A stretch of DNA of 64,000 nt from assembly GCA_951406725.2 (NCBI GenBank), contig OX597826.1, forward strand, positions 16,864,001 through 16,928,000, given 5' to 3'. A program made the translations under genes and the position numbers. This DNA is from Octopus vulgaris (Eukaryota). The notes beneath the pieces were generated by a model that was not told the DNA's origin, did no database searches, and saw only the letters and a program-made list of their open reading frames with translations. Below, one piece after another: positions 3,085-60,637 of the stretch (within the stretch, counting starts at the first letter, position 1; every line of letters starts with the position of its first letter).

Positions 3085-4020
<936 letters not shown>

Positions 4021-4417
4021 CATGCGTATGTATGCATCTGATTTGTTGCCTCAATGTGTGTTTGTATATATCTATGCGCACACATATTATTCTGACACTT
4101 TTCGTCGAAGAATAATGAAGTTTGAAATTAGCTTCCTGATGAAATTTGATATACCCAGTGAGTCACACGCTTGAAGTCATACATTTACATTAGGTAATAT
4201 ACTCCGTTAACTACGAATAACCAAAATCTTTAGGAAAAATAATATCATGTCTTGATCCCAAAATTATCTGAATCCCAAGTCAACACACAATTTGATCATA
4301 GTAGCCAAATTTAATCATACAGGCCAAATAAATTCCACCCACTCCCCCGAACGAATTGATGTAGTAAACATAGGAAAAGTATTGGCGTTATCATGACTGG
4401 CAAAACACTGACGATGT

Positions 4418-5060
4418 CTTCTTCTTGCCTTTAGACAGCATTCACTCAGGGCGGGTTGAGCTGGCTTCATTCATCCTCAATGCTGCATCTCTCATAAACG
4501 CCGACCAGGTCTGGCGATTTGAGGCTAACGACCGCGTGATCTCCAACCACTCCCTATTCCAGCGGCAAACACCGTAGACATGGGTTCCAGATCAGCATTG
4601 ACTGTCATCAGCCGGGTTTTTCGTTGTCCACCACATCGCTTTCGCCAACCCTGAAGGGGAGCGCGGGCAATTGCTTCGTAGATGAATTATGGTTGACGAC
4701 GGAGGGCATGACCCAGCCAACACAGACGTCTTGGTAGGATGGCTTGTCGGAGGGAGGTGATTCTGCACTGGTGTCGCACCGAATTGTTGGAGACAAAGTG
4801 ATGCCGTCGGACACGAAGGATGAGGCGTAGACAGAGGTGATCGAAGGATTCTAGTCGCTTAACATCTTCCACCCTCATCGGCTATGACTCGCTGCCGTAA
4901 AGGAGAATCGTTCGCGCTAGTGCTTGGTAGATCCGTACTTCGGTGGTGCGTCGGATCTCAGATCTTGACCGGAGTCGTGCACTCAGTCGGTTGAAGGCTT
5001 GGCGAGTGAGGTCGATTCGTGTTTTAATGTCAGCCTCACCTTGACCTGTGACTGACGAGG
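4418..5060 (-). mobile_element. RTE-clade LINE, 5'-truncated 3' fragment
   Basis: DIKTRIDLTRQAFNRL...RIYQALARTILLYGSES*...LESFDHLCLRLILRV...RRLCWLGHALRR is the typical RTE post-RT region; short AAG-type tail. Confidence 0.85.
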
Positions 5061-48015: not shown

Positions 48016-48189
48016 CGTTAGCCACTGCACACATTTTTCTCTCCTTGTTTTTTCTGTGTCCCTTTCTGTAGAAGAGCGAAGGCTCGAAACGTAAAAGACG
48101 TTTCTATTTCTGAGCGTTATACTAATACATCTGTTTGTTTTGTACACCACCTGTCTTCGTCTTTTGTTTTTTTGTTTTTCGTAAAATTT

Positions 48190-48193
<4 letters not shown>
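48016..48193 (+). mobile_element. ~175-bp interspersed element with hammerhead-like motif (Penelope tail or retrozyme-like), copy 1
   Basis: Near-identical to 55809-55988; CTTT-CTGTAGA-AGAGC-GAAG-GCTC-GAAACGTA-AAAG; sits between CA and TA microsatellites. Confidence 0.7.
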
Positions 48194-48225
<32 letters not shown>

Positions 48226-48681: not shown

Positions 48682-50647
48682 TTTATTTCATTAAGATTTG
48701 CCATAAAGGCATTACAAAGAGTAGTTTGCGGGCTAGACATATACATTGATGAGGTGAATGAGGAAACAAGGATGATATTGATGAGAGAATGCAGAAAACA
48801 CCCGCCGATTTTCTGCTTCTCTAAAACATTGTTCTTTTTTTTCCAACAGAAATGACAGTTTTTACAGTTATTGGACTTAATAGTCCATTACAAATATATA
48901 CAATAAATTATTCAATATACACACAATCTATGAGATCAATGATCCTCACCGGAGCCCCCAAGCAAATGAACTGTCACCTGCAGGAAACCCTGCATCGGCA
49001 GGTCGGGGCCCGGGAAGAGGAAAGCAAAATCTTCCTTATTACAGGTCACCATGACCTCGAACAGCTCCTTCTGATGCACGACCTCTGCAGCTATCTGCGG
49101 AGGGCAGCCTGGACAATCTATACAGACCGAGTCCAATTGTTCTCGGCCTGGAAGACCGTCCAAGCACTTCTCGACAGGCCCTCCTCTGAGATAGAAAACG
49201 ATGGGTTTCACCTCCTCTTCATTGGGAGGGGCCTCAGCCTGCTCTGTCAGTGGCACAATTCCCACTGACAGAATCTCTATCTCCGGTGGCACACCTTCCA
49301 CTGGAGGAGCATCGGGTTCGGTCGGCGGCACAACGATATCCGTCGAACGTCTCCCGTTTCTCTTCCTTCTCTTTTTCCTTCTTACGGTTGCGGGAGTCGG
49401 GGCCTCCCCGGGGTCCTCCTCCTCTCCCGCAACCTGCGCGTCTGTTGGTGAGCAACCATTATTACTCACCTTTCTTTACTTCCTCGTTGACGCCTTATTA
49501 ATGTGGCCTGACTTCAGGTACGAATGACACTTGGCGGGGCGTCCCTCAAGGATCACTGGGTGCCTAGAACCGGCCAATGTCATAAAATCCGGTAATACCA
49601 GATCTTCGGCTGACTAGGTCCAAAGTGTCAAAACAGCTTTTGACCCCACCCAGTCAACCGCAAACATAATTTTTACATTCAACAGCTTGGTGTTACCCAG
49701 ACCCCGGCGGATGGTTTCCTCTATCCACTCGAGCTCAATTCCGAGTGGCAGCCCACACCCAAGCTCTCGTTAATTTTCGCCCACCGTATGTGGGGAGAAA
49801 CAAAATCGTCTCTCCCCCACTACCGGTTGTCACGCAAAATTGTTTTCTTCCGTAGGGGTGTCAAAAAGAACACACACAGTTTCATACTTTGCTCCCCTAC
49901 GAATAAATCGAAAAGTTGGCAGGTACTCTGCCAACTCTTCCTCAATCTCAGACAGAGAGCTCAACGATGGTTTCAAGGACCCTAGAGTAGATCCTTAACA
50001 CCACCGTTCTCTCAGTATAATTTTTAAGCCAATGTTTGGGGCCCACAATTCGCCACTCTAAAGCGGTGTTCTTTGTTGTCATTTTTTCCAAAAATAAAAT
50101 AAAAATAAAATGTTCCAAAAACAAAAAGTTCAAAAATGTTCAAATAAAAGTCAATAATAAAACACAAAGAAAGAACGGAAAGACAGACGAGAGAACAAAA
50201 GGAATGAAGGAGACAGTTCAACTGGCAACAAAATTTCTGCTACCCAGGTAATCTGCAGTTCCCCGTCGAAGCACAAAAATTAAATTATTTGCCATCTTCG
50301 CACTCCTTGCTTGAATGGTAAATCCAAAAGTAATTCCCGGTCACGAACACAGTCAAAAAAAGACAATTGTCACAAAAATCTTTTTCCAGGAGGGAATACG
50401 CCTCCCAAAAACACTATTCTCACTGCAAAGTGAGTGTTTTCGCAGAACCACAGGCAGGCAAATGTCTGGAACGGAGTGGAGACTATTACTCAACAAAAAT
50501 GATTAAAATTACAGAGCAACAAACTCCATTAAGCCCCCCAAAATAAACCAAACGCCTACCTGTAGTCGTGGTTCAATCTATCAATATTTCACGTCGAAAG
50601 ACGTGACTTCTAAGCAGCATGAAAAAATGCGAACTCTTCTCTAATGA
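48682..50647 (-). mobile_element. ORF1-only (HAL1-like) non-LTR element related to Tx1/L1 ORF1
   Basis: ATG at 50082 (MTTKNT...TERTVVLRIYSR), FLPTYGGRK, EGRPAKCHSYLKSGHINKAS (degenerate CCHC), basic RRKKRRKR/acidic C-terminal ORF to 48936, 3' UTR ending AATAAA; ~14-bp imperfect TSD; no RT. Confidence 0.7.
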
Positions 50648-52646
50648 GGTAAACAAGCTACAAACCACACAGCTACTCCTGTTTATATATTCGTTTATCT
50701 GCATCTTTTACTTGTTTCAGTCATTCGACGGTGGCCATCCATCGGCGCCACCTTCAGGAATTTTTATTGTTTTAAAGTACTTATTTTATAGTTCCCGTTT
50801 GCCCTACCTATGGGGACGTAAACACAACAGCACCGGTTGTCAACCTGTGGTGATCGACAAACACAGACACACACGCACAAATCCACACGACAGGCTTCAC
50901 TCAGCTTCTGTCTATCAAACCCAGTCACAAAGCTTTTGTCGGCCCGAAGCTATAGTAGAAATCACTTGTCTACGAACCACATTCTGTAGCACTGAATGTG
51001 GTTCGTAGGCAAACTTGTTCCCATGCACTTCGGACCCATGTGGTTCTGCGTTTATATATAAGCATGGATGCGAAGTATATTTCTTACAGACATAAGTGTA
51101 TCTGCGCTTATAAGTTTATATACATTTATACTAATACATACATGTGTATACGAGAGTGCATTTATACTTTTCAATGTATGTATTAATGAATAGTCTATAA
51201 TTATAGAAAGTTACGTTGGTTGTTTCACAGCTAAATCAGAAGAGATTGATGTTGCGCTCATTATGGAATATTGAACGCAGTTAATCTACGTGATAAGATG
51301 CACATTAAGCCAAGAAAAGCTACTCCAGTCAATCAAATGTAGTACATGTATAAATAAATGTTCACAGGCATACAGCTCTTGCAAATACACGCCCATATTA
51401 AAACATACAACAGAAAGAAAGACAGACGAGAGAACAAAAGGAATGAAGGAGACAGTTCAACTGGCAACAAAATTTCTGCTACAGGTAATCTGCAGTTCCC
51501 CGTCGAAGCACAAAAATTAAATTATTTGCCATCTTCGCACTCCTTGCTTGAATGGTAAATCCAAAAGTAATTCCCGGTCACGAACACAGTCAAAAAAAGA
51601 CAATTGTCACAAAAATCTTTTTCCAGGAGGGAATACGCCTCCCAAAAACACTATTCTCACTGCAAAGTGAGTGTTTTCGCAGAACCACAGGCAGGCAAAT
51701 GTCTGGAACGGAGTGGAGACTATTACTCAACAAAAATGATTAAAATTACAGAGCAACAAACTCCATTAAGCCCCCCAAAATAAACCAAACGCCTACCTGT
51801 AGTCGTGGTTCAATCTATCAATATTTCACGTCGAAAGACGTGACTTCTAAGCAGCATGAAAAAATGCGAACTCTTCTCTAATGAGGTAAACAAGCTACAT
51901 ACCACACAGCTACTCCTGTTTATATATTCGTTTATCTGCATCTTTTACTTGTTTCAGTCATTCGACGGTGGCCATCCATCGGCGCCACCTTCAGGAATTT
52001 TTATTGTTTTAAAGTACTTATTTTATAGTTCCCGTTTGCCCTACCTATGGGGACGTAAACACAACAGCACCGGTTGTCAACCTGTGGTGATCGACAAACA
52101 CAGACACACACGCACAAATCCACACGACAGGCTTCACTCAGCTTCTGTCTATCAAACCCAGTCACAAAGCTTTTGTCGGCCCGAAGCTATAGTAGAAATC
52201 ACTTGTCTACGAACCACATTCTGTAGCACTGAATGTGGTTCGTAGGCAAACTTGTTCCCATGCACTTCGGACCCATGTGGTTCTGCGTTTATATATAAGC
52301 ATGGATGCGAAGTATATTTCTTACAGACATAAGTGTATCTGCGCTTATAAGTTTATATACATTTATACTAATACATACATGTGTATACGAGAGTGCATTT
52401 ATACTTTTCAATGTATGTATTAATGAATAGTCTATAATTATAGAAAGTTACGTTGGTTGTTTCACAGCTAAATCAGAAGAGATTGATGTTGCGCTCATTA
52501 TGGAATATTGAACGCAGTTAATCTACGTGATAAGATGCACATTAAGCCAAGAAAAGCTACTCCAGTCAATCAAATGTAGTACATGTATAAATAAATGTTC
52601 ACAGGCATACAGCTCTTGCAAATACACGCCCATATTAAAACATACA
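50178..52646. repeat. Near-identical direct tandem duplication, period 1237 bp (50178-51409 and 51417-52646)
   Basis: Duplicated ORFs offset by 1237 (50315/51552, 50619/51856, 50998/52235); by eye only a 2-nt indel and one substitution differ. Confidence 0.97.
50700..51045 (-). mobile_element. Diverged SINE family A copy (duplicated at ~51937-52282)
   Basis: TTTTACTTGTTTCAGTCATT...GGGACGTAAACAC...CGGTTGTCAA...GCTATAGTAGAA. Confidence 0.8.
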
Positions 52647-53079
52647 TACTCATGCAAAAACAGAGAAGGAGAGAGGGCGAGAGGGAAATATCATCAATAA
52701 GACTGACATGTGAAAGTAAAATTGAGTCCATCAAAAGCAGACTGTTTGTAATACGTCATTTGTACTTTCGTACAAATAGCATAGATATTTATATAAATCA
52801 CCATTGAATTCAGTATTCATAATTCAATATATACCATTAATATAGATACATATGAATGTCTTAAAATATGGTAAATTACAATTTAAAATTATCCTCTCAG
52901 TTTTACTAGTTTCTGTCTTTAGGCTACGGCACCATTGTGGTATTTTCTTTCAGCTCGACCCTAGTTCTGGTATTGTGGATCTATGTGTACGGAATCGTTA
53001 CACAACACTTTTTGAAACAATACTGGTAAGGATAAACATGTATGCACACAGTAACGGGGTCAACTCTGATCCTTCGAAA

Positions 53080-53960
53080 CAAGCTAGTGTGTGTCTTCTC
53101 CGCTAGAAACCAGCCAGTATCTTTGATCTTGCCAACCACTACCCTACTGCACTAAGTTCATGTCTTTCGGGTAATGCAATGGGCTATTAACAATAACTTT
53201 CTTTAAAACCACGAATCTCCATCTCCTTAATGACCACCAGTAGTCTTTCGGTAGAACTCCATCATCCGATTGCACATCGAACATACACCAAAGAGCTCTT
53301 AGTCTTAGTGGTATTTTGTGAAAGGAATGTTGTTACCCTCGACTGTACCTCTTATACGATTCATCTTTCTTAAAGTTGTTACCATAGTCGCCATTCATAT
53401 TCTAGTCATTTCTATAGGTAGATTGCAATAACATCGCATTATTGCCATATGTTGACATGTTAATTCCGGCGTATGCCAGTGTTCATTTAATCCTTCCCAT
53501 TCTTCCTTTTAAACGCCAGTGCTATATATGATGTTACATCCAACAACACACAGTTATATGCAGATGTTAAAATCCTTCATCTTTCCCTCATACTATCCAA
53601 CATCGTATTATCCACCCGTACCCTAGTCACCATATGCCGACCCATATTGACTTTATGAACGATATATCGAAGCGATCGTGTTTTTCTCAACAGTAACAAA
53701 CACACAATTGCATCACACCCGTTTCTACATTACAGACTCGAATGGAATACTAGAAATTGCTCAAATTAAGGATCTTACTATCCCAACTGTCAAAAAGACG
53801 CACTTAGGATCATAGCTACTGGCTCTCATATTCGTGGTCATAAGATAATTCAGCCTCCTGCAAATATTGATACACTACACAGCTCAGGTTTGACCTACAA
53901 TGAACTGTTGCACTTGCAGCTAGGACGATGTTGGTTCTACATTAAGCGTCATCGTGGACC
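53080..53960 (+). mobile_element. Highly decayed L2/CR1-like LINE RT fragment
   Basis: HLLNDHQ*SF (xQYGF), VNSGVCQCS (SGVPQGS) and QLYADV (YADD) occur in the expected order. Confidence 0.55.
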
Positions 53961-54039
53961 GCTAAACGATCAGGGTCATACATATGTATGTGTATCTGCG
54001 TGTGTGTGTGTGTATAGTGGGGTGTGTATATGTATATAT

Positions 54040-54245
54040 TATTCTTTTCCGTGTTTCAGTCATTTTACTACGGCAATGCTGGAACACCTCCGTGAAGTGT
54101 TTTTGGTGAGCAATTCAACCCCAGCACTTATTTTTAAACCTAGTACTTCTTTCAGTCTCTTTACCGAACCGCTATGTTACAAGCACGTAAACACACCAGC
54201 ATCGGTGGTCAAGCGATTGGTGGAGGAACAAACACAGACACACAC
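54040..54245 (-). mobile_element. SINE family A, 3' half
   Basis: GTTTCAGTCATT...ATGCTGGA.CACC...CCTAGTACTT...CGTAAACACACCAGCATCGGT. Confidence 0.8.
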
Positions 54246-54374
54246 ATACGCACGCACACGCACACACACACGCACATATACATTTGTATGTATGTATGTG
54301 TGTGTGTGTGTGTGTGCGCGTATGTATGTATGTATGTATGTATGTATTTATGAATCTATGTATGTATGTATGTT

Positions 54375-54791
54375 GACGGTAACGTTTTTTGCCACTATAA
54401 CATGGCTGTTCTATAAAGAACAATGTTACTACATTTTCACACCAGGAAAACGTATTTTCCAGCTGGTTAACGGCACACAACCTGGGTCCGATGTATTGTG
54501 AGTTAGGGAACAATTCACTACCCTCCACCTTGGCAAGACCTGTAGACCATGGTTTCTGGGTCTTTACCCTTCATTGGCGCACTGGTCACCTGCCTGCCCG
54601 CAGACCCCACAGCCGTGATGTACTGGGCTTGCCAAGCTGAAATAGTGTGACACGCTCCCTTACACACAATATATCGGACACCGGTTGTGTGTCCTTAACC
54701 AGCTGGAAAAGACGTTTTCCTGGGTTTAGAATGTAGTAACATTGATCGTTATAGAACAGCCATGTTATAGTGGCAAAAAAACGTTAGTGTC
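54375..54791. mobile_element. Non-autonomous element with ~135-bp terminal inverted repeats enclosing a degenerate hammerhead motif
   Basis: Arms 54375-54510 and 54654-54791 (TTTTTTGCCACTATAACATGGCTGTTCTATAA / TTATAGAACAGCCATGTTATAGTGGCAAAAAA); hammerhead-like 54539-54585 on the minus strand. Confidence 0.8.
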
Positions 54792-54851
54792 TAGTATTGT
54801 TACTACTTATATCTCGTTTAGACAATTTTAAAACTGGCTATTTTGTTCGTT

Positions 54852-55147
54852 GTGGATGCACATGGCCTAGTGGTTAGAGCAGCGGACTCGCAGTCCAGGG
54901 ATCGCGGGTCCGAATCTCAGCCCGGGCGATGTGTGCATTTATGAGCGAAACACTTAAGTTCCACGTGGCTCCGGCAGAAGCTAATGGCGAACTTCTGCTG
55001 ACTCCTTTGCCACAACTTGCTCTCACTCTTTTCTCATGTATCTTGCAGCTCACCTGCGAGGGACCGGCGTCTCATCCAGGTGGGGAACCTATACGCCAAG
55101 GAAACTGGCCCTATGAGCCAAGCCTGGTTCGAGAAGAAACAAAAACA
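54852..55147 (+). mobile_element. tRNA-derived SINE, family C2 (V-domain-like 3' module)
   Basis: TGGCCTAGTGGTTAGAGCAG head shared with 8598-8998; CCTGCGAGGGACCGGCGTCTCATCCAGG recalls the V-SINE domain; A-rich tail. Confidence 0.8.
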
Positions 55148-55229
55148 GTTTTGTTCGTTGCGAGATCAGCAGCTGTCTGCCACTTCTCCGTTTATATATT
55201 ATGAGAAGGGACGATTGACAATCATCTCT

Positions 55230-55452
55230 AGCAGGCATTTGTCCAGTATCGATGAAGGGTAAAGAGCCACAAACGATAGTTTACTGGTCTTTCCAAGCAG
55301 GAAGAATGTGCTTCGCTCCCTTACTCACAATATATCGGACACAGATTGTATGTCGTTAACCAGCCGGAAAGACTTTTACCTGGGGTTAAAATGTAGTAAC
55401 ACTTCTTTAAAGAACAGCCATGTTATGGTAGCAAAAAAAATACGTTACCGTC
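55230..55452 (+). mobile_element. Second, half copy of the TIR-hammerhead element in the opposite orientation
   Basis: Homologous to the reverse complement of 54375-54600; ends CGTTACCGTC. Confidence 0.8.
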
Positions 55453-55494
55453 TTGCACTGTTACTACTAGCTATTACGACTAGCTATTTTGATC

Positions 55495-55540
<46 letters not shown>

Positions 55541-55734
55541 ATCGTTTGTAGAAAATACAAATCCAAAAGAAGAAGCACAATCTGAGATGTAGTGTAGTAT
55601 GCATTAAAAATGTGGCAAGCTGGTTTATAGGCCAACAGGATTTAGGGATCTGAAGCTATTCCATAAAACTAAACCCTTAATGGATGGGAAACCTAAAGTA
55701 ATCCCATAAACCAGTCTTCCCCATTTTTAATTGT

Positions 55735-55791
<57 letters not shown>

Positions 55792-55808
55792 CAGTCGCCA
55801 TGATAGAT

Positions 55809-55986
55809 CGTTAGCCACTACACACATTTTTTCTCTCCTTGTTTTTTTCTGTGTCCCTTTCTGTAGAAGAGCGTAGGCTTGAAACGAAAAAGACTTTTGC
55901 TATTCCTGAGCGTTATACTAATACATCTGTTTGTTTTGTACGCCACCTGTCTTCGTCTTTTGTTTTTGTTTTTCGTAAACTCTCCC

Positions 55987-55988
<2 letters not shown>
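55809..55988 (+). mobile_element. ~175-bp hammerhead-like element, copy 2
   Basis: Matches 48016-48193; followed by (TA)n. Confidence 0.7.
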
Positions 55989-56030
<42 letters not shown>

Positions 56031-56037
56031 AGGTGTA

Positions 56038-56192
56038 CTTCTTTCAGTTTCCGTCTAGCAAATCCATTTGCAAGACTTTGGTCGGCTCGAGGCAATAATT
56101 GAAGACACTTGCCGAAGGTGCCACGCTGTAGGACTGAACCCAGTACCGCATGGTTGAGAACAAACTTCTTACTACACAGCCACGCCTGTGCC
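56038..56192 (-). mobile_element. SINE family A, 5' half (tRNA-like head)
   Basis: GGCACAGGCGTGGCTGTGTAGTAAG...GGGTTCAGTCC on the minus strand. Confidence 0.82.
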
Positions 56193-59174
56193 TTTATCAT
56201 CGTATCTATTAACTGTTTCAGGTGTTTGACAACGATCGTTTAACGACAGTGCCCTTATGATTTTTGTCGAGTCTAGTACTTTTTCTGTTAATATATTTTC
56301 TAGATAATAACGTTCAATGTACACTAGAGAACGTAACTCGACGGACTGAATTAGGTTATTTTTGTATTGTATGCTATCGTAAGTATGTGCGTGTGTGTGC
56401 TGTCTTTGTAACCTACCCCATTTTTACCTTCCTATCCCTACCTGATTCCACGTGCTCACTTGTATGGATGTGTGTAGCTGTGTATTGCTAATGTTCATAA
56501 TTATGTATATTTATACATCTGAATTTCTTTGCATTCCGCTGTCATTTTAACCGCACCCTAAATAAATTCCTACCTATACTTTAAAAAACAAACAAGAAAC
56601 GAGCGATTAGTTGGTCGCTTAGAGAGTTAACCAATTGTCTAAGAATAAAAAAGTGATATTCTATCAGTGTGTGTGTGTTGACAATTATTGGCGTAACGCT
56701 CCTTCCAAGACACAAGATTTGTTTTAACAGACGAATTCACATCAAGAACCTTGCGAACCAAATACAAAGACGTGTATATATTTTACCAAGCTTTAGTTGA
56801 AAGAATTCGTTATGTTATTATTTATTTAATTTTTTATATATGGTGTTTATATATCGTAATAAATTAACATCTTCGCAGATTTACCTATGTTGTAGCCTGA
56901 TCAATATCTAGGAAGTCCTTGTCAGTAATGATTAGCTCTAATCTAGTAGCAAGTATCCAGAAGAAAAATTCAAAGCGTTGAAAGTTATTGATTTCTATTT
57001 CTGATTTTGCCTATTTTTTTTTATTATAAATACCTTAATCATACTATTTCTGAATATTTGCTATGTTTTACTGTAAAATATGTCGCTGAATTCAGGACCT
57101 GCAGCAAATTACCAATCGATTGAAAGATAATAAGGTAAAGATTTATTTTATTGATTAGCTTTCTTTGCAAGATGAAAAGAAATTGAAGAAAGAGGAAATA
57201 AAATATTACAAACATAACGATTTGTTCTCCCACTTCGTTATATAATGATAGTTTAATATAAATATTGATAACTGTAAAAATAACTATTTAACTCACAAAA
57301 CTATTTATACAGTTCTGTGTCTCTAATCATCAAATTTAACTAGAGTCTAGCGCAGGTATTATAAATCACAGATAACAATTATATTTTTAGTGATTGATTT
57401 TAATTTTATTATTAATTCAAATTATCCATTAAATGTTAACAGAATATTCTGTTAACAAATTATTATTGTCAATGTCACGTCAATGTGGAGCACATACTTG
57501 AATTTGCTTCCCTTATATGCATGCAAATAATGTGTAATTTGTCTCCAAGTTTTTTTTTTGTAATAGAAATCCATCCTCGTAACGTAAAACTATGTTACTA
57601 ATTTTTGATACCTGATCATTAATAAGATGTCGCTAGAGCAATCAGTAAACCATAGAAAATGAGATTCATATTTTCATTTCATTAAAAGTTAATACTTTAG
57701 CTATAATTCTGCTGGACAAGAATCTACATTTTTGTTGTCATTTTGTTCGTTTGATTTTCAAAAAATATTTTAAACAAGAATTATTGAGCAGGATTTTTAA
57801 TTGAGAGACTTTGTAGAGATGTGTAGTTTATTAAAATCCATTACTGTTGAAGATATTTGAACAGTAATTTAAATGGAACAACTGCTTTTGTCTGTCTTGT
57901 CATTTTATATAGTTTGTAAGAATTGCTGTGTCCAGGAACCTTTACAGGGTTTGCGCAAAGGAAACAGAAAGAAATTCTCAAACAGAAAACTTGACCCCAT
58001 GGCATGCAACAGAACGGATACTGCCTCATGCGTCAGGAGGTTTGAACCCGGGCAGCTGATTAAATCAACTATGGATATATATGCATAAGCTCGTGCGCGA
58101 TGTGTGTTTGTCTGCATAAGAGTGCATACAGACAAATGAATTACATCTAAGAACTTACGAGTTGTGGTGTATCTTAAGTTCAGACTAATGATTGATTGCA
58201 TGGTATCACAAATTTCTTCGTTCAATTTTGTCGAGAAAAATAAGTGATTTCGCCATATGGTAATCTCCTTCGAAAATCTACGACAGCTACTTACATGATT
58301 TGCCTTCTCTATCGAGCACTCATGTCTTTCGTGCAGTGTGTCCATACACACTTACACATTCAAACACTGAGGAATGTGTAGATCTGTGTGTGTTTGTGTG
58401 TCTAAAACAGAGTTGTTTTATGCTTCATTTGTTTGTTCTGGTAGCAAATTTTTTTTCTTCAGTTTCTTTTTTCAGACGTAAAATCAATAGAATTTCAACA
58501 CTAATCAAAAGTAAAAATATGAATAGTAAAGAGTAAGTGTCGTAGATTGTATGTCTTTCATCCAGAAGCGTCTATATACGTGTGTTTGTATGTGTGTCTC
58601 TGTATTCATTCAGTGTTGTTTTATGGACGTAGTTTTATGGACCATTACTTCGATGGCAATAGTAGTTTTAAATCAAAGTTGATATCTTCCGAGTTGTGTG
58701 TAACGGGGATACAATAAAAGCTGAAAGCGTAAAAAGGAATCAACCAGATCACTAATTAATTAACTTATTTTTATAATGCATCTGGTCTGGCTTTTACACA
58801 AGACTTAAAGGAGGGAAAAAGCCTTTCGGCATCCAACTATCTCAAATACATGATATTAAAAGGAAATGTCTTAATGATCATCAGTATGATACCGATACAT
58901 AGGTTAGTGAAGTGGACAGAGTAGAATGGTTTTCTCCCTAAATTCGCAGTTTCATTTACTTGATATACTCGTTATTTTCTTATAGCCATGAGGGGAAAAC
59001 TATATATTTCTGAAGAACATTTTGAAATAAAACAATAAAACATGATGTGAACTGGATTTTCCATTCGTCTGTATCAAAATATTCATTAAGTACAGACACA
59101 CACATATACACACTCACACTGACATATATATATTGGCTATACTGGCAATATGACCATCCACAAATACAACAATA

Positions 59175-59236
<62 letters not shown>

Positions 59237-60637
59237 TCTGTGTATGTGTGTGTGTGTGTGTGTGTAATTATCATCATCATCATCATCAGAAATTTGGGAT
59301 CTCCGATGAAGTTTATCAGATTGTCGTAAACGAGGATTGAGCACTGAAAATGAAATCACAATTTCAAGAGCATATCTGAAAACATAAACCCAAACCCAAA
59401 ACTAGATCAATATATAGATTCAATATTGTTTTGTATAATCAATATTTATTCCATTTATTTTCTTTCAATAATTTAATGATAATACACACATACAAACACA
59501 CACACACACACGCAGGCATGCACGCGTAAGCTAACACACATACATGTACGCGTAAACCCACTTGCATGTTTGTGTGTATACACTCCCTCCCTCATTCTTC
59601 CACTCTGTCTATCTATCACTCTATCAATCTATCTATCTCTCTATTTCACTTATTTGACAGTTGCTTGTCTTTAATCTGCTTCCTGACTTGTTCTTTGGAT
59701 AGTGGTTTGTTAATACGCTTTCTCTAATTTAAGGAGAAAAGAATCGAAAATGTTGAATAAATTGTTCACCGTAAAAGCTTACGTTTGAATAAAATAGCAG
59801 ACTCAGCTATAAATTATAAACTTAACAGCCGGGATTAGCATCTAATGGAATTCTAGTTTTCTTTGTATTTCTCTATGAATCATCATATTTGAATCTATCG
59901 GTATGAAGGACAAATGGGAGAAAAACAGACAAAGACAGAGAGAGTGAAAGAGAGAATATGAGAGGTGAAGTAATAGAGAGAAATATCGAGAAAACAGGAA
60001 AATGACGACGCATATATAAATGCTATAAGGACGAAGTAGGTAAAGATATAATAGAAAGGCGTAGGAAGAGACAGAAATATTTTGCTACGAGGTTGAAAGA
60101 GAAAGACTACTGTTCGATAAAGCAGAAAAAGAAAAATGTTAAGGCAGAACAGAGTAATGGAAATGGAAATGAAGAAATCAAAAAAAAAATTAAAAAATTA
60201 AAATTGGTGAGAGAAAAAATATGACGTTCAGGTGACTGAAGTAGAAATATATGAATAAAGGATTTGTTTGCGAGAAAAGTCTAAAGAGAAATATAGAGAT
60301 AAAAACGTTGAGATGAAAAAAATTTGACAGATAAAGCGAATAGAGATGAGGTTAAAGACAAGAAATGATAAGACAGAAAGTGACAGAGTGATAGAATAGA
60401 GAACATTTATGTACAAATGTATTTGCCTAGGTGTGTGTATTATGTTTGTCAGCGCGTATGTGTGTTTGTGTTTGTGTGTAAATATGTTTTTTGTGTATGT
60501 GCGTGTGTATACATTTATCTGTATATATTTAATAGATACATGTATATGCATATATTACACATATTTATGCCTATATGAGTGCATATATTTAAATATATAA
60601 ACAATTATATATAAAAACTCACAAGCAGGAACAAATT

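Follow-up and report, generated by a model that had tools for sequence, protein, structure and literature searches.

The hammerhead-bearing repeat at 54375-55497 of the window, the 64,000-nucleotide stretch of Octopus vulgaris DNA analysed here, is with a probability of roughly 85% an old copy of a 352-nt non-coding animal retrozyme of the non-LTR type, likely inserted into a microsatellite in trans by the RT/endonuclease of a Penelope-like element (PLE). The recurrent unit is a 352-nt non-coding monomer that carries one type I hammerhead and is inserted as partial tandems. The original prediction had seen in this locus a non-autonomous class built on a 417-bp TIR-hammerhead-TIR unit, and had named PLEs among several possible origins. 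The repeat is indeed non-autonomous and its hammerhead has a genuine type I fold, but the TIR or foldback class did not survive the comparison of loci, since arm lengths and inner junctions differ from one locus to the next; of the origins then named, it is the PLE whose insertion footprint the family matches. The family is thus a retrozyme variant and not a new foldback class.

Anatomy of the insertion in the window

With monomer position 1 set at the base that follows the GUC site, the locus and its flanks read as follows.

54318..54372, no strand: (TATG)n microsatellite flanking the insertion on the left
54375..55497, no strand: whole insertion, an inverted 5'-truncated arm plus a partial tandem of ~1.7 monomers, likely split later by a SINE-like repeat
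54375..54597, minus: left arm, monomer 302-352 then 1-171, ending at the short 3' register; 91% identity to the family majority
54539..54585, minus: hammerhead copy 1, with a CCAAUGA core, stem II and stem III both preserved, and a 2-nt insertion and one mismatch in stem I
54602..54851, plus: right arm, monomer 334-352 then 1-230; 88-90% identity
54602-54626, plus: 3' half of a decayed hammerhead, inside which the right arm begins
54792..54851, plus: tail of the right arm only, ~60 nt from the short (~170) to the long (~230) 3' register
54841..54852, plus: left copy of the 12-bp target-site duplication of the nested repeat, identical to 55149-55160
54853..55148, plus: nested SINE-like repeat, 296 bp with an A-rich tract at its end, separate from the hammerhead element
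55149..55497, plus: partial tandem, continued, monomer 220-352 then 1-230, ending at the long 3' register; 81-87% identity
55243..55287, plus: hammerhead copy 2, with stem I preserved, stem III broken and changes at C3, G12 and C17
55499..55538, no strand: (TA)n microsatellite flanking the insertion on the right

Because the monomer coordinates are continuous across the 12-bp duplication, we infer that 54375-55497 is likely a single insertion, which the SINE-like repeat split at a later time. What had been taken for a second half copy is really 349 bp long (55149-55497), a near-complete monomer on the strand of the right arm, which it continues past the 296-bp repeat. The inverted arms themselves are present, within 54380-54786, and their outer ~138 bp match (120/139 columns identical), much as expected of the ~135-bp TIRs described for them; however, the right arm extends ~60 bp beyond the supposed TIR, to 54851, and the ends are asymmetric. 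The inverted match runs for 179 nt at 81% identity (54385-54563 against 54602-54780) because both arms copy one monomer, part of the ribozyme included. No target-site duplication of the whole insertion was discernible at its outer ends in the window.

Both hammerhead-like stretches lie where they had been placed and carry the damaged cores reported for them. Copy 1 reads CCAAUGA because G5 has been lost through CpG decay, and from the changes in their sequences both copies are predicted to be inactive. An Rfam scan of 50000-60000 at E<=10 returned no hammerhead family, only microsatellite-driven miRNA matches, and the 64-kb window gave no PLE protein match.

The nested SINE-like repeat is 86% identical over 291 nt to a copy in another locus (L164), and its 5' ~180 nt are 73-80% identical to copies in other loci. 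A- and B-box motifs suggest that it may be tRNA-derived; ARAGORN found no tRNA gene within it. Its nested position within the element's tail region makes it the younger of the two insertions. Other repeats in the window include a near-identical ~1.27 kb tandem duplication (50141-51409 and 51382-52646, 98.9%), which explains a duplicated weak U1 match in the Rfam scan, and a 213-bp repeat that occurs at 55809-56019 and 48016-48225 (92%). Between (TA)n runs, 55858-55900 resembles by eye a decayed minimal hammerhead of a PLE pLTR.

The repeat family and its variant hammerhead

A search of the 2.8-Gb genome (about 30 large contigs) with a 436-bp stretch identified the unit as a dispersed repeat, with 127 matches, mostly to one arm only, in the best 40 of 934 candidates, which were the ones scored. 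When 38 arms were aligned, one and the same sequence was found upstream of the ribozyme and downstream of the supposed TIR, which gives the monomer its period of 352 nt. We mapped loci onto three joined monomers in two sets, drawn from the best-scoring searches rather than randomly: a first set of 65 loci, and a second set in which 126 records, after prior removal of 12 records of a sister family (B), merged into 78 loci. The 65 loci contained 35 direct tandem pieces longer than one monomer, the longest of 686 nt. Only 4/78 loci carry two tandem hammerheads, so most copies could not release a monomer. There is no coding capacity, the longest stop-free frame in three joined monomers being 54 aa. 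At one locus, near-identical copies lie 1976 bp apart (L095:1976-2169 and 3952-4145), probably through local segmental duplication after insertion.

The family is old. Median identity to the family majority is 88% and non-CpG divergence 8.8%, a decay of ~9%. Capture-recapture gives a copy number of ~104 loci (66 x 33 / 21), a minimum estimate, since well-preserved copies are over-represented in both samples. Furthermore, each of three larger RNA runs, under three organism labels, contained 288-469 diverged contigs, which fits an old shared repeat.

The hammerhead folds as type I, with a palindromic stem III and a GUC site. A search pattern that left core positions 4-5 free returned 20 matches with CG (9), TG (6) or CA (5) and no other dinucleotide at these positions, and 78 aligned hammerheads had the cores CCGATGA (30), CCAATGA (12), CTGATGA (12) and others (24). 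TG was not in excess over CA (16 vs 13, p=0.71), and the core CpG decays like ten other CpGs of the monomer (TG vs other CpG sites, p=0.34). As read from the aligned copies, the ancestral core is CCGAUGA, from a master with C at position 4. We considered CUGAUGA, the core that the original prediction had reconstructed, as the ancestral form and rejected it; the copies that carry it are explained by CpG decay. An intact CCGA core persists in 20/78 old copies. The decay turns the variant core into the textbook one, and 7/78 old copies read as intact canonical hammerheads (CUGA), so that surveys relying on descriptors would pick up the decayed minority and overlook the master.

A second departure lies beneath stem II, where the old family has an A.A mismatch at pair 10.1-11.1 in place of canonical pairing. 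The family therefore has neither the CUGANGA core nor the paired 10.1-11.1 of canonical hammerheads. Excerpts of published work (PMC3088659) indicate that departures at U4 and at pair 10.1-11.1 are both expected to lower activity, that U4C reduces hammerhead activity in vitro yet permits viroid infectivity, and that a U10.1-U11.1 mismatch is found in natural hammerheads. By analogy, weak, dimer-dependent cleavage by the CCGAUGA hammerhead is plausible. Of four single hammerheads, three folded no better than shuffled sequences (z -0.2 to -0.4) and the fourth gave z -1.9, as is expected of a dimer-type motif.

Two sister families share this core. The young one has a 360-nt monomer with a CCGAUGA core and the same palindromic stem III; it made up 98 of the first 100 listed among the 887 matches to a looser ribozyme pattern. 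Its monomer is colinear with the old one at 48-53% identity (two alignments), its stem II is different but paired, with U.U beneath, and its copies are ~98% uniform and multimeric. The second, family B, is old, has a 350-nt monomer 72% identical to that of the window family (A), and keeps the CCGAUGA core. We located it at L171, L176, L178-L180, L184, L187, L188, L191, L198 and L199, apparently with the same end registers. Both sister families are free of ORFs and have the same kind of period. These families, 48-72% identical, have all retained the GUC triplet and the rest of the core.

The stems of the hammerhead covary across the three families. In an alignment of 15 distinct copies (hand-chosen rows, comprising 14 ribozyme-pattern matches and the two window copies), 90.6% of stem cells were paired, compared to 19-37% in slid controls, and 8/12 stem pairs had changed on both sides; because the three families are related, these counts represent few independent events. 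A chance inverted pair of unique sequences is excluded for a dispersed repeat with covarying stems. The predicted circular fold of the monomer was far more stable than that of shuffled sequences in both the old (z -7.8, 60 shuffles) and the young family (z -5.6). Between families A and B, 17/22 double changes in this fold keep pairing and 94/112 pairs survive, against 85.3+-2.7 simulated. In this prediction, pairing bridges the cleavage site and shows compensatory changes.

Further hammerheads, seen at L203:4740-5260 in a repeat with a period of 434 bp and at L204 (around 4650-4750), share the palindromic stem III but combine a longer stem II with a canonical CUGAUGA core; no PLE ORF was found near either.

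Inverted arms, 3' ends and the proposed route of insertion

Abutting arms in the 78 loci were divergent in 31 cases and convergent in 2 (p=1e-7), with 5 further pairs on the same strand. The divergent arrangement, a second, 5'-truncated arm set back to back with the first, thus recurs well beyond the window in 31/78 loci, while 47/78 have no abutting inverted arm. It was seen in 15/33 loci picked by the ribozyme pattern alone and in 15/38 loci that the inverted-repeat query had not retrieved. The arms vary from ~40 to ~640 bp between loci. Their 5' ends at the junctions are scattered over the monomer, lying near the cleavage site in 3/52 cases (65 loci). The window locus has a close counterpart in a 420-bp shape at L002.

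Free 3' ends fell within monomer 150-235, 24% of its length, in 75/92 cases (65 loci, p=2e-30), a region that the first query spanned and in which it may favour ends. They peak near 170 and 230, counted from the cleavage site, and free 5' ends were not enriched in the same region (15/47, p=0.24). Because the young sister family, to which the query bias does not apply, has the same registers, we regard these as supported: in each of its 9 mapped loci the 3' ends lie at 175-178 or 222, in alignment with the two old registers. With class limits chosen after the data were seen, 14/16 classifiable divergent pairs combine one short and one long end, 2 have two short ends and none has two long; the other 15/31 pairs have an end outside both classes. 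Similarly, divergent pairs of the young family combine one short and one long end in 4/4 cases; its divergent arrays lie in (TA)n and have arms of up to 9 monomers. A microsatellite lies <=60 bp from 36/92 free 3' ends of the old family, compared to 340/2281 background windows (15%). The 20-bp flanks of the family loci, many of them microsatellite, showed no constant TSD on inspection, and no adjoining sequence recurs among the 47 free 5' flanks.

MITEs, Foldback elements and DIRS elements have long inverted repeats that end a short non-coding insertion, as here. A new non-autonomous class of this kind, either a MITE-like DNA transposon or a DIRS derivative with TIR-hammerhead-TIR as its unit, would account for the long inverted arms in the window and at 31/78 loci, and for the similar L002. 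We give it hardly any credence, because the junctions are scattered, arm length varies more than tenfold, and 47/78 loci do without the inverted arm altogether. Unlike these elements, the family has no fixed termini or symmetric ends, no constant TSD is evident in its 20-bp flanks, and direct tandems are common in it, with the 35 pieces longer than a monomer and the fold-back arrays of up to nine monomers per arm in the young family. Variable junctions and direct tandems also argue against a DIRS derivative.

The same features are those of PLEs. According to excerpts of the literature, PLE insertions typically have an inverted 5'-truncated copy next to them, carry a tail on one side and favour microsatellites as targets (Craig et al., PMC8557442), and a 2014 study noted opposite-strand hammerhead pairs separated by 100-700 bp (Cervera and de la Pena, PMC4209133). 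In vitro, a purified protein of a PLE can nick AT-rich DNA on both strands and extend each of them, starting at two internal sites that bound the tail (Frangieh et al., PMC11167929). With EN+ PLEs as described in excerpts of these three papers, the family shares partial tandems, 5' truncation, the adjacent inverted 5'-truncated copy, the one-end tail, AT-rich or microsatellite targets, a hammerhead upstream of the tail and the lack of a clear TSD. It differs from them in having no ORF, in a tail of ~60 nt compared to the 30-40 bp quoted for PLEs, and in showing no sequence link to any sampled PLE; the length of the tail and the lack of an autonomous partner among the sampled PLEs both weigh against movement of a retrozyme by a PLE, which we nevertheless consider the best explanation.

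The search for such a partner drew on 6136 GIY-YIG candidates, of which the best 150 were scored. Intact RT+GIY-YIG ORFs of 781 aa are present in this genome, and are found in a young autonomous PLE family at L149-L160 (12 copies). The 3' region or pLTR of this family contains several tandem hammerhead-like motifs beginning U3. The old monomer showed no similarity to the GIY-YIG loci in 20 of the 150 scored, nor to one 781-aa PLE plus flanks, and the young monomer gave one 26-nt match to a PLE ORF (E 0.001), which is probably due to chance. No PLE ORF lay within ~4.7 kb of five loci with related ribozyme patterns. PLE ORF fragments occur within 4/78 family loci and, where followed up, came from other repeats. 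The 3' end of one old PLE family lies within 10-700 bp of the unit at L017, L026 and L028 (3/78 loci); by eye, this PLE ends in two registers, in microsatellites, and its proximity possibly reflects a shared target preference and not shared ancestry.

These neighbours bear on whether the copies are simply 5'-truncated pLTR remnants of an extinct autonomous PLE, with no independent retrozyme involved. The footprint would be the same, opposite-strand hammerhead pairs have been ascribed to truncated PLEs (excerpts of PMC4209133), and one of the four PLE ORF fragments abuts the unit, at L028. We nonetheless judge this improbable. The original prediction had suggested looking for longer copies around an RT ORF; what precedes the unit in long copies is the monomer's own tail, over as much as 686 nt, and no ORF, and remnants of one larger element would not explain 47 free 5' flanks that have no adjoining sequence in common. 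The PLE near L017, L026 and L028 has an unrelated 3' end, and the unit is absent from 29 of its 30 sampled copies. The existence of two sister families with the same ORF-free period argues in the same direction.

For a retrozyme moved by a PLE, the insertions suggest the following route. PLE protein would bind a multimeric or circular RNA at around monomer 170-230, and an AT-rich target would be nicked on both strands; each 3' end would prime reverse transcription, one at ~170 and the other at ~230. Joining of the two cDNAs at arbitrary points would then yield inverted arms of any length with a one-sided tail. The ribozyme would not set the insertion ends; its role may be a weak GUC cleavage, dependent on dimers formed through the palindromic stem III, that supplies monomers for circularisation.

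The last step has its own competitor, compatible with the PLE footprint and differing only in the part given to the ribozyme: the element and the route are the same, but the hammerhead is catalytically negligible and serves as a structural or protein-binding module, the template being long transcripts instead of self-cut circles. We regard this as rather unlikely but worth serious consideration, given that U4C and the 10.1-11.1 mismatch occur together, that ends are not enriched at the cleavage site, and that hammerhead mutants still insert in vitro with PLE protein, leaving insertion unaffected in the excerpted results of PMC11167929. Against it, the other core positions and GUC have been kept across families only 48-72% identical, with covarying stems, and pairing in the predicted circular fold spans the cleavage site and shows compensatory changes. 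Moreover, U4C supports viroid infectivity, and U10.1-U11.1 mismatches are known in nature (excerpts of PMC3088659).

Taking these observations together, we tentatively propose that a doubly non-canonical hammerhead, with U4C and a mismatch at the base of stem II, may have been kept through at least three amplification waves, acting as a dimer or with help from the PLE. The insertions could then record the copying of a single, probably circular RNA by a PLE dimer at both nicked strands, each with its own start site, with registers that stayed fixed despite drift to ~50% identity.

Relation to known retrozymes and implications

In excerpts of their descriptions (PMC7229834; bioRxiv 10.64898/2026.07.22.740005), metazoan non-LTR retrozymes have, like the family here, a ~350-nt non-coding monomer with one type I hammerhead, a 6-bp stem I and a short palindromic stem III, a predicted circle that is highly self-paired, and coexisting PLEs; mussel retrozymes are 350-390 bp (PMC7229834). 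In contrast to these, the family here has the CCGAUGA core and the mismatch beneath stem II, and its insertions mostly comprise 1-2 monomers. It often has inverted arms, whereas the word 'inverted' is absent from the main text of PMC7229834. It also differs in being known from sequence alone, with cleavage and circles predicted. Because the core is not the canonical one while the monomer size, within the ~150-450 bp of animal retrozymes, and the topology, lack of coding capacity and fold are those of this class, we file the family on sequence grounds as a variant.

Its closest relative for comparison is the young 360-nt family, with which it shares the core, the palindromic stem III, a colinear monomer, homologous 3' registers and divergent arrays. 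The two differ in sequence (48-53% identity), in the pair beneath stem II (A.A here and U.U there), in the tail, which is 46 nt in the young family, and in age, the window family being ~9% decayed whereas copies of the young one are ~98% identical. We found no description of a CCGAUGA animal retrozyme or of any cephalopod retrozyme in the open-access papers searched, the supplements of which may list such variants. A squid genome paper, in the excerpt available, merely counts 235 hammerhead matches (PMC6962438).

These results remove a candidate new foldback class, its inverted repeats being a by-product of Penelope-type insertion. They also give genomic support for the movement of animal retrozymes by PLE proteins, previously argued mainly from co-occurrence and pLTR phylogeny. 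In vitro, the two PLE start sites are not strand-specific (excerpts of PMC11167929), whereas family arms pair a short with a long end; this discrepancy weighs against the proposed route, and the pairing provides a testable constraint on how the two sites are used. Finally, the family represents a natural lineage of CCGAUGA hammerheads that standard descriptors and Rfam miss, and its young sister family is open to assay.
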